Source: Candidatus Gottesmanbacteria bacterium (GTDB lineage: Bacteria; Patescibacteriota; Microgenomatia; 2-02-FULL-39-11). From it: a stretch of 64,000 nucleotides of DNA. Both the position numbers and the translations under genes were made by a program. Location of the stretch: assembly GCA_016195685.1 (NCBI GenBank), contig JACPZE010000002.1:4177-68176 (forward strand), in the 5' to 3' direction. The first letter of the stretch is position 1. Each line of letters starts with the position of its first letter. Shown in pieces: positions 25,795 to 64,000 of the stretch. The notes beneath the pieces were generated by a model, which was given only the letters and a program-made list of their open reading frames with translations, made no database searches and was not told the DNA's origin.

Positions 25795-25845
25795 AATTAG
25801 TATTTAGTATCTAGTATAAAGTATTTAAGGAATAACGAAAAGAAT

Positions 25846-58117: not shown

Positions 58118-58215
58118 GATAAAGTTAATTAGCGAATTAGTTAATTTGTTAATTAGTTACTTAGCAGAAGTAATTACTAACTAACCAATTAACTAAGTAT
58201 CTAAATAACTATATT

Positions 58216-59920: not shown

Positions 59921-60580
59921 GTGACCATCTCCATTCTCACTCTTTTTCCAAAAGTATTTCAAGATATCTTTTCTTCTTCTATCATTGGACGTGCCCAGAA
60001 GAGGAAACTTATAAAAATTTCTACCGTCAACATCCGTGATTTTGCATACAATCGCCACCATCAGGTAGACGATAAACCATACGGTGGAGGCATCGGAATG
60101 ATAATGCGTGTAGACATAATTGATAAAGCCTTATCAAGTATAAAGCTAAAAAACAAAAATTCAGTATTTAAGGAAAAAATTGTATTGCTTGATCCCAAGG
60201 GGAAACAGTTTAATCAATCAAAAGCCAGAAGTTATTCCAAATTAGACCACTTGATTTTAATTTGCGGACATTACGAAGGCATAGACGAACGTATTAGTCA
60301 TTTTATCGATGAAAGAATTTCTATAGGCAAATATGTGCTAACCGGTGGCGAGATACCGGCTATGGTCATTACAGACGCTGTAGTAAGGCTAATTTCAGGA
60401 GTCTTAGTAAAAAAACAGGCAACTATTGAAGAATCGTTTGGGACAGGCGGATATCTAGAAGAACCTCAATACACCAGACCTCCTGTCTATAAAGGTTTAA
60501 AGGTACCGCAGGTTCTTCTTTCGGGCAATCATAAAGAAATATCTGATTGGCGAAAGTCTAAAAGGATTCTATTGAAATAA
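59921..60580 (+). CDS. trmD: tRNA (guanine37-N1)-methyltransferase TrmD. The GTG start at 59921 is proposed; the ORF-track start at 59858 would overlap the KH gene by 59 nt.
   Basis: ISILTLFPKVF, YGGGIGM and GHYEGIDER are TrmD motifs. rimM, which usually lies between KH and trmD, is absent. Confidence 0.85.
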   Translation: MTISILTLFPKVFQDIFSSSIIGRAQKRKLIKISTVNIRDFAYNRHHQVDDKPYGGGIGMIMRVDIIDKALSSIKLKNKNSVFKEKIVLLDPKGKQFNQSKARSYSKLDHLILICGHYEGIDERISHFIDERISIGKYVLTGGEIPAMVITDAVVRLISGVLVKKQATIEESFGTGGYLEEPQYTRPPVYKGLKVPQVLLSGNHKEISDWRKSKRILLK

Positions 60581-61303
60581 GTTTTTCTTGCCTATACTAT
60601 TTTTATCCAAATCAACAGTTACCGTATCCTGCGGCAAACTTAACAAGTTTATCTTTTGTAATATTGCATCCTGGCTTTTTTCAAGCTTTGGAAGCGGAGA
60701 ATCTATCGAACCTAAAGTTCCCGGCAATATGTAAAAAAAAGCCCGCCCGCTTAATACAACATCTAAGGTATCGCTTTGCTTATTATTGACGGTCACTTCA
60801 TCAAAAGTCATCAAACGGCCATTATAGTTGGAAACCAAATCCAAAAATTTCCTCAATCCTTCTAGATTACCCATCACTTCTACGGAAATCGGTATCATAA
60901 AAGCGGCAGTTCCGGCAGCGCGCTGTAAAGTTGCTGACGATGTTGAAACTACACCCAGTTGAAAATCCGTACGTACTATAGTTATTCCTGACTGTTTCTC
61001 CAATAAATCAAAAGTGCCAATTAGTGACACGTAATCTTTATTTTCAGGTAAAATTTGACTCGATTTCAGAAAAACATCTTTATAGAATTGATAATTTAAT
61101 GACGTCAGAGATGAATCTTTTTGCGTTAATAACTCTACTTTCTTTTTTAAATCTTGCCCTTGAGCATAAATTTGATTGGCATGGTTGAGATTGGGAAGTA
61201 ACATATTGAAAGTAAGAACTATAACTATCATCAGCACTCCGCTGGATGCTATGAGAATTTCGTATTGATGAAGATATGATAAATAATCAAATTTTGTTTT
61301 CAT
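60569..61303 (-). CDS. pilO: Type IV pilus assembly protein PilO-like
   Basis: Single N-terminal TM, coiled coil then a periplasmic domain. Positioned after pilN. 244 aa. Confidence 0.45.
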   Translation of the reverse strand: MKTKFDYLSYLHQYEILIASSGVLMIVIVLTFNMLLPNLNHANQIYAQGQDLKKKVELLTQKDSSLTSLNYQFYKDVFLKSSQILPENKDYVSLIGTFDLLEKQSGITIVRTDFQLGVVSTSSATLQRAAGTAAFMIPISVEVMGNLEGLRKFLDLVSNYNGRLMTFDEVTVNNKQSDTLDVVLSGRAFFYILPGTLGSIDSPLPKLEKSQDAILQKINLLSLPQDTVTVDLDKNSIGKKNLFQ

Positions 61304-61857
61304 TCTAAAAGGCTGGTACTGGGTTTAAACGAAACTGATAATAAATAACCTGCATTTTTATCCCGTACGATACCAGAAGTCTTTATATCAGAAAAAAGTT
61401 TGGCTGCGTCAGCGTTTAGAAGTTTAGTAGCAAATTCGTCAAGCGAAGCGGCAGAAGAAGCAGTCACCGAGACTGTAACAGAATTTTTCTTGTCGATATT
61501 TGTTTGTGAAATTAAAACTCCGCTAGATTGCAGTTTTAAAATTTCTGATAAAAGAGATATAAATTTTTTATTCCCATTACTTAGTTGATCGATAGTTTTC
61601 ACCCTGGAAACTGTAAGTATGTAAATTCCTTCTGCATTTTTATTTGCGGAAATTCTTTTTTCCAGATTATCGATTTGCAGTCGAAGAGAATTGTACTCGC
61701 TGTTATTTTTGTTGATATAAATAATTGACGATAAGAATAGGATAACAAATATAAACAGACTTACCGCGGAAAAAATAGGCAGAAGCAATCTTAGTTTTTT
61801 GACTACAGGTAATTCGTTTTCCTTTTTTATTACGAGATTAACCGAGTGTTTTGCCAT
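61300..61857 (-). CDS. pilN: Type IV pilus assembly protein PilN-like
   Basis: Bitopic; N-terminus LRLLLPIFSAVSLFIFVILFL followed by a coiled coil. Overlaps pilO by 4 nt. Confidence 0.5.
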   Translation of the reverse strand: MAKHSVNLVIKKENELPVVKKLRLLLPIFSAVSLFIFVILFLSSIIYINKNNSEYNSLRLQIDNLEKRISANKNAEGIYILTVSRVKTIDQLSNGNKKFISLLSEILKLQSSGVLISQTNIDKKNSVTVSVTASSAASLDEFATKLLNADAAKLFSDIKTSGIVRDKNAGYLLSVSFKPSTSLLE

Positions 61858-61859
61858 AT

Positions 61860-62894
61860 TTATTCGACGTCCTTAAGCGCTAGACCTATTGCTTGTGTAT
61901 AAACTGGAGCATCGGGAGATAAGGAAGGCAAAATATTGGGGTCGATGGTCAGATTTATGAAAGGATTGCTGATTTGAGAATCCAGTCCTAGATTTTTGGT
62001 AAATGCCAATACTAGTCCCGGAAGTTTGGCCCCTCCACCGCATATCGTCAGGTTTGTAATCTCATCTTTGGGATATTGTTCCTTAAAATATGCGATATTT
62101 TTTTCTATTTCTGAATAAAGTGAAGTAAAATAAGGAGCAATACTTTTTGCTATCTTCCCCTCCAATTTATCCTCATCTAAACCATAAGTTTTTTTGTATT
62201 CTTCGGCTTGAGGGAATTCAAAGCCAAGCTCTTCTGCAATTGCACGGGTTAAAGTATTTCCTCCTAGAGGAATTGATTTTGTATAGACCAGCATTTGTTC
62301 ATGCAAAAGAGCAACTTCGGTCGTTGTGGCTCCGCAACTGATTACCATTGCTTGCGAAAGAGTAGGAAAACTTGTTGTAATACTTCTGCTTGCAGCCAAA
62401 ATTTCTGTCTCCAAGGCGGTAGGATTTAAACCAGCTAGGGTAATAATGTGCATATACTTTTCTATCAAATCAATCGGTGCGGCAATCAAAAGCAGTTTCA
62501 TTTTTGTAGTCTGTTCATCACGATTTATAACAGTAAAATCTAATTTGACTTTAGATAATGGCATGGGGATATATTGTTCTGCTTCCCATTGTATGCTTGA
62601 AGCTAATTCTGAATCTGACATAAGAGGAAGCTCCAAAACTCGAGTTATGACATTCGCCGACGGAAGGGAAGCAGATACATCTGAAGTAGAAATCTTCATA
62701 TCATGAACCAGTCTATTGATAGAATCAGCCATAATCTGATCATTATTGGAGTTTTTACTGTTTAAAGAAGTAACTTTGGTAGGAGTAGGGATGTAACCAG
62801 CCGCAAGAAGTTGATTTCTGTTTTTTTCCCGCGACATCTGGACCGCTTTTATAGTTTGAGTACCAATATCAAGGCCAACAAGTAATTTTTGCAT
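61860..62894 (-). CDS. pilM: Type IV pilus assembly ATPase-fold protein PilM (actin-like)
   Basis: LVGLDIGTQTIKAV N-terminus and an actin/FtsA-like fold pattern. 344 aa. Confidence 0.7.
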   Translation of the reverse strand: MQKLLVGLDIGTQTIKAVQMSREKNRNQLLAAGYIPTPTKVTSLNSKNSNNDQIMADSINRLVHDMKISTSDVSASLPSANVITRVLELPLMSDSELASSIQWEAEQYIPMPLSKVKLDFTVINRDEQTTKMKLLLIAAPIDLIEKYMHIITLAGLNPTALETEILAASRSITTSFPTLSQAMVISCGATTTEVALLHEQMLVYTKSIPLGGNTLTRAIAEELGFEFPQAEEYKKTYGLDEDKLEGKIAKSIAPYFTSLYSEIEKNIAYFKEQYPKDEITNLTICGGGAKLPGLVLAFTKNLGLDSQISNPFINLTIDPNILPSLSPDAPVYTQAIGLALKDVE

Positions 62895-62945
62895 GGGCAG
62901 ATGTTTCTATTATCTGGCTTTTAGGAGCGTTTTGTCAACAGAAGT

Positions 62946-63842
62946 TTACTGCTTGGTTTCAGCAAATAAAGTAAAATCCAGTAGCGTTGGAAGGACGTTA
63001 TATCCTTGTGTTACTTGAATCTTCCTCACCACTCCTGTCGTTGTTTGTCCTACTGAAGTTATGATTTTTCCTTGTACTGGTAAATTAGCATTTGCTTTTA
63101 TTGCAAAAGTCGTATTTTCATAGACCGGCATAATCCTTAAAAATAACAATTTTGGGTTCTTAAGTGCATCCAATTTAAAATCACCCAAGGGACTTATTGT
63201 TTTCCGGTATTGATAATTGCCGTCACAATAATTATTGGGACCGCTTTCAACAACATTATCAAAATTATTTGCGACAGGATTACGAGACGTTCCATTCTTA
63301 TCATACGCGCTACGTGCAAACTTATAGCCATCAGTATCTTTATAAAAAAGGCTCAATGCAATTGCCGCATTATTATTTGTGTCTGTTCCCCAACATAAAT
63401 CGAAAGTAAATCCGGTAGGATCTTTGCCAGATGCTTCATTTAGAGTCCCATCATTTTTATGATCCGCAAGCCAAATTGTCTGCGTTTCTGTATGAGAAGT
63501 AACAGGAAAGGAAAGAGTATTCGTATTTCCTATTGAAGATACTGAATATGTTCCAGTTGTATATGTTCCATTGGCATCTGGCAGCCTAACTGTACTTTGT
63601 TGATTACCGACTATTGCACCTTTTAGTGCATTCTCCACTCCGGCCTCTGCCGCAGAAAATGCCCGGCCGGATTGTTCAATCTGACTAGAAATACGGATAT
63701 CGGTAACAGTCCGGGAAATTAAAGACAAACCAATTGTTAATCCCACAATTGTAATTAATACCAACATTAACACAATTTGACCATTTTCTTTTACCTTATT
63801 ATTTGAAAATTGAAAATTGAAAATTGAAAATTTATTCATCAT
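62946..63842 (-). CDS. Pilin-like / minor-pilin-like secreted protein. It has a short basic leader ending in Gly, then a hydrophobic helix of about 22 aa. It lacks the canonical +1 Phe and +5 Glu residues.
   Basis: MMNKFSIFNFQFSNNKVKENG|QIVLMLVLITIVGLTIGLSLISRT. AGGAGG SD 6 nt upstream of ATGATG. Two Cys residues in a Thr/Asn/Gly-rich C-terminal domain. A (TTTTCAA)x4 repeat lies in codons 5-13. Confidence 0.4.
   Translation of the reverse strand: MMNKFSIFNFQFSNNKVKENGQIVLMLVLITIVGLTIGLSLISRTVTDIRISSQIEQSGRAFSAAEAGVENALKGAIVGNQQSTVRLPDANGTYTTGTYSVSSIGNTNTLSFPVTSHTETQTIWLADHKNDGTLNEASGKDPTGFTFDLCWGTDTNNNAAIALSLFYKDTDGYKFARSAYDKNGTSRNPVANNFDNVVESGPNNYCDGNYQYRKTISPLGDFKLDALKNPKLLFLRIMPVYENTTFAIKANANLPVQGKIITSVGQTTTGVVRKIQVTQGYNVLPTLLDFTLFAETKQ
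63803..63830. repeat. Perfect heptanucleotide tandem repeat (TTGAAAA)x4 inside the 5' coding region of the pilin-like gene
   Basis: Seen: ttgaaaa ttgaaaa ttgaaaa ttgaaaa at 63803-63830. Confidence 0.9.
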
Positions 63843-64000
63843 GGTTTTACCTCCTGCCAGTTTACTTGGCTTCGTCCTAGATACGGAAGCAAGGCAACTG
63901 CATATTGCGGCTTATAAATAAATTCATATGTTGGATCGATAAAACTGCGGTAGGTCCTCTTTAAAGATAAAGTTTTGGTATAAACCATACCGTTCAATTT
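63839..64000 (-). CDS. 3' end of an unidentified ORF running off the window edge, translationally coupled (ATGA overlap) to the pilin-like gene
   Basis: The minus frame is open across all 162 nt (…YKPQYAVALLPYLGRSQVNWQEVKP*). The TGA stop overlaps the downstream ATG. Confidence 0.35.
   Translation of the reverse strand, partial: KLNGMVYTKTLSLKRTYRSFIDPTYEFIYKPQYAVALLPYLGRSQVNWQEVKP

Follow-up and report, generated by a model that had tools for sequence, protein, structure and literature searches.

A heptanucleotide repeat in the leader of a minor-pilin-like gene of Candidatus Gottesmanbacteria as a possible low-rate frameshift switch

Phase variation by heptanucleotide simple sequence repeats (SSRs) has been demonstrated experimentally for neuO, the O-acetyltransferase gene of the CUS-3 prophage of Escherichia coli K1, whose 5′ coding region carries (AAGACTC)n in 3–53 units; the OFF state is seen in about 66% of complete genomes, and colonies show measurable mixtures of 20, 21 and 22 units. 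In Haemophilus influenzae, where heptamer SSRs have a permissive threshold of three or more units, hmw1A and hmw2A carry 7-bp repeats in the promoter, about 100 bp upstream, in 13–38 copies. SSRs also lie in the signal-peptide-coding regions of the Neisseria genes opa, with (CTCTT)n, and pilC, with poly-G, both experimentally proven switches. Here we analyze a heptanucleotide array, (TTTTCAA)x4, at the 5′ end of a minor-pilin-like gene (hereafter the pilX-like gene) that adjoins pilM, a pilN-like gene and pilO in a 64,000-nucleotide (nt) stretch of DNA, which we call the window (contig JACPZE010000002.1 of assembly GCA_016195685.1, positions 4,177 to 68,176). The host is an uncultured groundwater bacterium, Candidatus Gottesmanbacteria. 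We tentatively favor the view that the array is a low-rate, reversible frameshift switch in the minor-pilin leader that is mostly ON, although we put this at somewhat short of an even chance.

The array resembles neuO in having a 7-nt unit at the 5′ end of the open reading frame (ORF) and in allowing full-length translation in one of three repeat phases, and we count as a further likeness that the repeat-encoded peptide of neuO is tolerated in the product. Its four units lie above the H. influenzae threshold of three and at the bottom of the neuO range of 3–53. As in opa and pilC, the SSR lies in a leader absent from the mature surface or pilus protein (here, cleavage of the leader is putative), so that copy number would set only the frame, and pilC, like the pilX-like gene, is type IV pilus-related, encoding an accessory protein; the Neisseria repeats differ in being pentamers or homopolymers, in their longer tracts and in their Sec signal peptides, whereas the leader described here is of the prepilin type. 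The hmw genes, the precedent named in the first-pass annotation, likewise have a heptanucleotide SSR, which controls a surface adhesin, but their repeats grade transcription whereas the array of the window would shift the frame. A different kind of heptamer direct repeat, TAACTGA, was reported near start codons in Beggiatoaceae, Cyanobacteria and Bacteroidetes, in intergenic sets of 2–6 copies that usually replace the Shine-Dalgarno (SD) sequence and that differ between strains by 7-nt indels, and a translational role was proposed for it (MacGregor, 2015; PMC4679880). Unlike these repeats, in which a single unit dominates, the array studied here has the unit TTTTCAA and lies inside an ORF behind an AGGAGG.

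The heptamer array in its reading frame

The elements on which the argument turns are the following.

62946..63842, minus strand: PilX_N/GspK-like minor-pilin-like gene, 298 residues (ORF; PilX_N E=0.019; homologues; AlphaFold2)
63803..63832, minus strand: perfect heptanucleotide array, sense (TTTTCAA)x4 plus two flanking matching bases (Tandem Repeats Finder, TRF)
63837..63842, minus strand: tandem ATG ATG start, the first ATG overlapping the TGA stop of the upstream gene as ATGA (sequence)
63850..63855, minus strand: Shine-Dalgarno AGGAGG, 7 nt ahead of the ATG (sequence)
63783..63842, minus strand: leader-coding segment, codons 1–20, before Gly21 (orthologue alignment; AlphaFold2)
63777..63782, minus strand: codons of Gly21–Gln22, putative prepilin-peptidase-type G(-1) site (alignment)

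On the plus strand, positions 63803–63832 read (TTGAAAA)x4.3 with period 7 and 100% matches, and the TRF score of 60 is the best in the window. The array is 30 bp long and occupies nt 11–40 of the gene (codons 4/5–14), (TTTTCAA)x4 proper taking up nt 13–40; the coding strand begins ATG ATG AAT AAA (TTTTCAA)x4 AT..., encoding MMNKFSIFNFQFSN. The first-pass annotation was right about the repeat itself, although it ran the repeat to 63842, which belongs to the start codon, instead of 63832. No perfect tandem repeat in the window is longer, the runner-up measuring 12 bp. In a window of 64% A+T, the run of lag-7 self-matches at the array extends over 23 bases, against a mean of about 11 in Markov simulations and maxima of 14 (order 1) and 21 (order 3), and the expected number of chance occurrences, calculated analytically, is 4e-9 from window composition and 4e-3 under pure A/T sequence. 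The heptamer array is real and far beyond chance.

The product is like the minor (pseudo)pilins of PilX_N/GspK type in its short charged leader ending in Gly, in its long hydrophobic helix without Glu5 and in the adjacency of its gene to pilMNO. It is unlike them in that the PilX_N (PF14341) match is weak and below the Pfam cut-off (15.4 bits against a gathering cut-off of 25.5, E=0.019), that a search of NCBIfam gave no match and that the globular domain has no fold match in the PDB at E<=0.001. There are 361 homologues, mostly from Candidatus Gottesmanbacteria, some of which their sources (JGI, UniRef) name PilX or PilX N-terminal domain; the NCBI record HY029_00595, from a Gottesmanbacteria metagenome-assembled genome, is 100% identical. 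In the AlphaFold2 model (mean predicted local distance difference test score, pLDDT, 80.8) residues 1–19 are disordered, residues 20–75 form a single helix and a beta-rich domain follows, and the modelled product is pilin-like in architecture. Gly21 and Gln22 are invariant across 38 aligned orthologues and the conserved hydrophobic helix begins there; alignment and model together display the architecture expected of the class, in which a leader ending in Gly precedes about 50 residues of hydrophobic N-terminal helix and then a globular domain. From the invariant glycine alone we infer that the leader is probably cleaved at Gly21 by a prepilin peptidase.

Because a start at Met26 would delete the invariant Gly21–Gln22, the true start must lie upstream of Gly21, and as the only in-frame starts there are the ATGATG at 63842/63839, the array is translated. 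The NCBI start at Met26 (63765–63767; 273 residues in HY029_00595), which removes Gly21–Gln22 and part of the hydrophobic helix, was accordingly rejected as an annotation error in favor of Met1 (63840–63842). Similar internal-start miscalls are seen in two homologues, P0009 and P0180. The conserved codons for ...NWQE in the upstream gene form the AGGAGG, in a motif, AATTGGCAGGAGG, that is kept across orthologous loci; the AGGAGG had been noticed before, with a spacing to the first ATG of 6 nt that proves to be 7. The stop-overlapping position of the start recurs in 24 of 36 orthologous junctions and, on sequence grounds, the pilX-like gene is translationally coupled to the gene upstream. A role of the repeat as a promoter spacer was considered and rejected: the array lies downstream of both SD and start, and the sole promoter-like match overlapping it is weak (9/12) and on the opposite strand.

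With a 7-nt unit in an array placed between the sole usable start and Gly21–Gln22, a change of one or two units shifts the frame. When the gene was rebuilt in silico with 0–9 units, a full-length ORF was obtained at 1, 4 and 7 units only, the other counts giving ORFs of 7–28 residues with a stop 1–5 codons past the array, and there is no in-frame rescue start between the array and Gly21–Gln22. This bears out the first-pass claim that gain or loss of one unit would shift the frame into an immediate stop. The locus has, then, two features of a phase-variable locus, namely an uninterrupted non-triplet repeat inside an ORF, downstream of a start that SD, stop overlap and Gly21–Gln22 together define, and a full-length product that in silico is removed by a one-unit change and brought back by further changes.

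As we envisage the switch, the array would be embedded in a dispensable leader-coding segment of the PilX_N/GspK-like gene. Gain or loss of one or two units would shift the frame and truncate the product after 9–21 residues (OFF), and 1, 4 or 7 units would restore it (ON). Because a hypervariable leader would probably be cut off at Gly21, the mature protein would be the same whatever the number of units; SSRs in signal-peptide-coding regions follow this design too. Natural populations would be predominantly ON, with switching reversible and of low rate. For such a switch we infer slippage at a useful rate with only four units, and OFF cells that are viable and at an advantage, for example because an episymbiont without pili could detach or evade phage that target the pilus.

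Arrays in orthologous leaders and their turnover

For comparison, 103 related loci were drawn from collections of genomes and metagenomes and a further 12 by exact-protein look-up, and arrays were scored in the survey of junctions when they had a period of 7 or 8 and at least 2.5 copies within the coding leader. Gottesmanbacteria junctions are recognizable by an upstream gene that terminates ...LLPYLGRxQ(V/I)NWQE. Among orthologues the leader between the start and Gly21 varies from 5 to 40 residues and its sequence is not conserved. Arrays in the coding leader are found in 11 of 33 non-redundant junctions of Gottesmanbacteria type, mostly starting 3–10 nt into the gene. Across orthologues the units are related but different and stand in 1 to 5.1 copies, and non-triplet arrays are 25–90 times denser in the 120-nt junction segment than in the rest of the loci. 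Examples, named by locus, are the following.

L050: (AAATTTC)x4.7, 100% match
L055: (AAATATC)x5.0, 100% match
L111: (AATTTTC)x4.6, 100% match
L106: (AAATATC)x4.4, 95% match
L110: (AAATCTC)x4.4, 95% match
L001: 8-mers, 89% and 100% match

The unit of the window (here written AATTTTC) also occurs in L112, L111 and L060, whose proteins are only 46–62% identical, which implies long-term homogenization and an old unit. In L112, the closest orthologue, a GC-rich palindrome of 18 nt interrupts the array. Small GC-rich palindromes matching TC(C)CGCC-N3-4-GGCGG(G)A stand in or beside leader arrays, always in frame, in L053 (also L003/L054), L001, L049, L014, L112 and L068, examples being ccgccaaaggcgg, cccgccagaggcggg, cccgcctcagcggg, ccgccagctggcgg and tcgggtgccctctgggcg; such palindromes may represent a miniature insertion element or belong to the repetitive extragenic palindromic (REP) kind, and a search of the 64-kb window for the palindromes of orthologous leaders gave no match. 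A second repeat block follows the first in the leaders of five homologues (P0010, P0015, P0016, P0022 and P0058), seen at the protein level and, for L001 only, in DNA: the second-block peptides ...IGHWSLVIGH... and ...YWVIGLLGY... match (TTATTGGG)n in L001. Back-translated, P0010 would have (TTGGTCA)n, which we take to be a cyanobacterial short tandemly repeated repetitive (STRR) unit.

Close strains show how quickly these leaders change. One protein cluster at 90% identity contains five different leaders. At the DNA level (AAATATC)x3 in one strain stands at the place of (AAATCTC)x3 in another, which amounts to three identical changes at 7-nt spacing, while a third strain has an extended array and a fourth a single unit, with a leader exactly 21 nt (7 residues) shorter. 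Among strains at least 90% identical, copy number varies between 1 and about 4 units and the sequence of the unit differs too; in the P0026 and P0013 clusters, array-bearing and array-free leaders alternate. As a control, array-free leaders are essentially invariant across the 45 full-length members of five comparable clusters, so turnover is a property of the arrays and not of weak constraint alone. The comparison across relatives that the first-pass annotation had called for thus yields different units, 1 to 5.1 copies, a concerted unit change and presence or absence at 90% identity or above, rather than four units throughout or an unchanged N-terminus in relatives that lack the repeat. Read from these alignments, the array is a slippage-active heptanucleotide microsatellite. 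Slippage between in-frame states passes through out-of-frame intermediates, and if it is stepwise, lineages appear to have tolerated OFF states repeatedly. Coding-leader arrays are also more perfect than non-coding ones (median matches 95% against 82%, Mann-Whitney p=2e-4; 6 of 13 against 1 of 19 perfect), in samples that are small and phylogenetically non-independent.

N-terminally truncated homologue calls were followed as candidate OFF alleles, four of them at the DNA level, with a fifth, P0117, left out. The P0001 call results from an annotation choice at M26, the leaders of P0009 and P0180 are intact and in frame, and in P0108 the ATG is changed to ATC. At the canonical start of the last (L105, positions 2938–2946) ATC ATA is found where a close relative has ATG, either a loss of the start codon or a rare start.

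Neighboring genes and heptamer arrays at other starts

The genes around the pilX-like gene, and the other array regions of the window, are these.

63839..64000, minus strand: 3′ end (53 codons) of the upstream gene, which continues beyond the window (ORF, orthologues)
62909..62938, minus strand: promoter-like TTGACA-18-GATAAT (sigma-70-like consensus match only, 11/12)
61860..62894, minus strand: pilM (PilM_2 E=3.8e-57)
61300..61857, minus strand: pilN-like gene (position and a single transmembrane segment; no significant Pfam match)
60569..61303, minus strand: pilO (PilO E=7e-5, above the Pfam cut-off)
25797–25827: degenerate array, sense ATACTAA/ATACTAG/ATACTTT (TRF x4.4, 79% matches)
58123–58211: (AGTTAATT)x5.2 followed by (ACTA)x9, including TAACTAA motifs (TRF)

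In orthologues the upstream gene encodes 625–731 residues with an N-terminal transmembrane segment and the C-terminus ...YQPKY..LLPYLGRxQVNWQE..., and searches of Pfam and NCBIfam gave no family match for it. Downstream, the order pilM, pilN-like gene, pilO is as first described. The near-consensus promoter sits in the 51-nt gap from the pilX-like stop to the pilM start, and pilMNO may be transcribed independently of the pilX-like gene.

Heptamer arrays adjoin other start codons as well. The one at 25797–25827 fills most of the 51-nt enolase–gpmI spacer and ends 2 nt before the gpmI ATG, those at 58123–58211 occupy the recG–rpmF spacer right up to the rpmF ATG, and no SD is visible ahead of either ATG. 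Of the 15 other period-7 arrays in related loci, 12 coincide with or closely precede the start of a pilin gene, pilM or trmD. Further arrays of 7- or 8-mers occur in the pilus loci of Microgenomates and other Patescibacteria, each of them within the leader of a canonical GFTLIE-type pilin gene or closely ahead of such a gene or of pilM.

L093: 1649–1680
L037: 1877–1917, 3216–3263 and 27–56
L083: 2444–2468 and 3946–3978
L088: 104–148
L050: 3872–3903

A perfect (AAAAACG)x4.6 lies within the leader of a canonical GFTLIE pilin at one related locus, and several units of another array, (GAATAAT)x5.7, carry ATG. In L104, L069 and L018 a stop-rich array lies between the upstream stop and a displaced pilX-like start, where frameshifting is impossible. 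Units before starts contain TAA or TAG, and coding units are stop-free in all frames. It is these non-coding arrays, before gpmI and rpmF and in the three loci just named, that are like the TAACTGA repeats: an intergenic, start-proximal heptamer without SD is present at 25797–25827 and 58123–58211 and absent from the array under study.

A switch weighed against its alternatives

Several observations weigh against a frameshift switch. All 11 coding arrays known at the DNA level are in frame from the canonical start (P=6e-6 if phases were random), no frameshifted allele was found among about 120 orthologues, and the four truncated calls checked in DNA proved to be gene-caller choices or a start-codon substitution, none an array frameshift. 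Orthologue arrays never exceed about five units, and that of the window has four; in this, in having no OFF allele, and in its gene class and phylum, the locus differs from neuO. The pilX-like gene does not head a pilus operon, as had been proposed, since its start codon shares bases with the stop of a large gene upstream, a consensus scan found no promoter-like site ahead of it and pilM has one of its own. Young, transient arrays would look perfect too, so that perfection is not decisive, and the array may reflect a general start-proximal mutational habit rather than a dedicated switch. Two Logan contigs, L113 (SRR12113410) and L114 (SRR12113415), encode a PilM identical to that of the window, by which token the strain is present in both runs, but both contigs end in the pilX-like gene before the array. 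Look-ups of the exact product, with the NCBI protein and with the 298-residue ORF, found no independent assembly of this strain. As all sampled alleles are ON, OFF cells, if the array switches, must be a minority hidden by consensus assemblies. The phase-variation switch of the first-pass annotation therefore stands as far as architecture, frame logic and repeat dynamics go, and is weakened by the missing OFF allele, by the position within the gene cluster and by the similar arrays that elsewhere are non-coding.

The main rival, which we regard as possible but on the doubtful side, is that the array is a passenger: Gottesmanbacteria and other Microgenomates would readily form heptamer arrays in weakly constrained DNA next to starts, selection would keep the frame, and occasional nulls would be deleterious, with no regulatory role. 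Every sampled allele being ON, the shortness of the arrays, the two thirds of orthologues without any array, the arrays of L104, L069 and L018 before the start, and the placement of those 12 of 15 period-7 arrays and of the two other array regions of the window at or just upstream of unrelated starts (gpmI, rpmF, pilM, trmD, other pilins) all speak for it. Yet slippage as a pure liability should favor interrupted coding arrays, and the coding arrays are the most perfect; the same unit is kept across deeply diverged orthologues; and both the change from 1 to 4 units and the concerted replacement need OFF intermediates, hence an OFF state tolerated repeatedly. We consider it improbable that the array is instead a start-proximal cis element acting on the mRNA, as an unstructured A/U-rich landing pad or a binding site for an S1- or Csp-type single-strand-binding protein, in the way suggested for TAACTGA repeats; here such an element would fall just inside the ORF. 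Such an element would account for the way the arrays hug the start, mostly 3–10 nt after it when coding or directly before it when non-coding, for the narrow range of 4–5 copies across lineages and for the TCAA core common to most units, the remainder being A/T-rich, and the heptamers of MacGregor (2015; PMC4679880), with 2–6 copies, 7-nt indels between strains and a proposed translational role, offer a precedent. The translation-initiation region is unstructured (minimum free energy -8.7 kcal/mol, z=+0.87), although this lack of structure is not significant against shuffles, and a search of Rfam gave no match. Moreover, the gene of the window is already provided with a strong SD and with a start that overlaps the upstream stop and is coupled to it, whereas the published repeats typically replace the SD, most orthologues have no array, and unit sequences differ widely. 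That the array is chance low-complexity sequence or an assembly artefact might be suspected in an A/T-rich genome known here from a single metagenome-assembled contig, but is effectively refuted: the run is about twice the mean longest simulated run and above every simulated run, independent assemblies produced by several projects carry orthologous arrays as well, and the array is in frame with conserved flanks.

A broader proposal, which we think unlikely though far from negligible, is that Gottesmanbacteria, and more widely the Microgenomates of the Candidate Phyla Radiation (CPR), possess a lineage-wide contingency system for type IV pili, in which short, constantly renewed heptamer arrays, in the removable minor-pilin leader and where other pilin and assembly genes begin, stochastically switch or tune piliation. 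Such a system would give ultra-small obligate episymbionts a form of bet-hedging, between attachment and detachment or in escape from pilus-specific phage, and no SSR phase-variation system would have been described before it in the CPR. Type IV pili are conserved across the CPR (Patescibacteria) and are believed to aid cultivated members in attaching to their host bacteria. A literature search found no paper linking SSR phase variation with the CPR.

Were the array a passenger only, the locus would still be a clean natural example of microsatellite tolerance in coding DNA. Start-adjacent heptamer arrays, reported before only from Beggiatoaceae, Thiocystis violascens, Cyanobacteria and Bacteroidetes, now extend to a new phylum-level lineage. 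A confirmed switch would add a known type of mechanism in a new lineage, and a recurrent, frameshift-prone leader repeat with signs of slippage makes stochastic, heritable control of piliation directly testable in these uncultured organisms.

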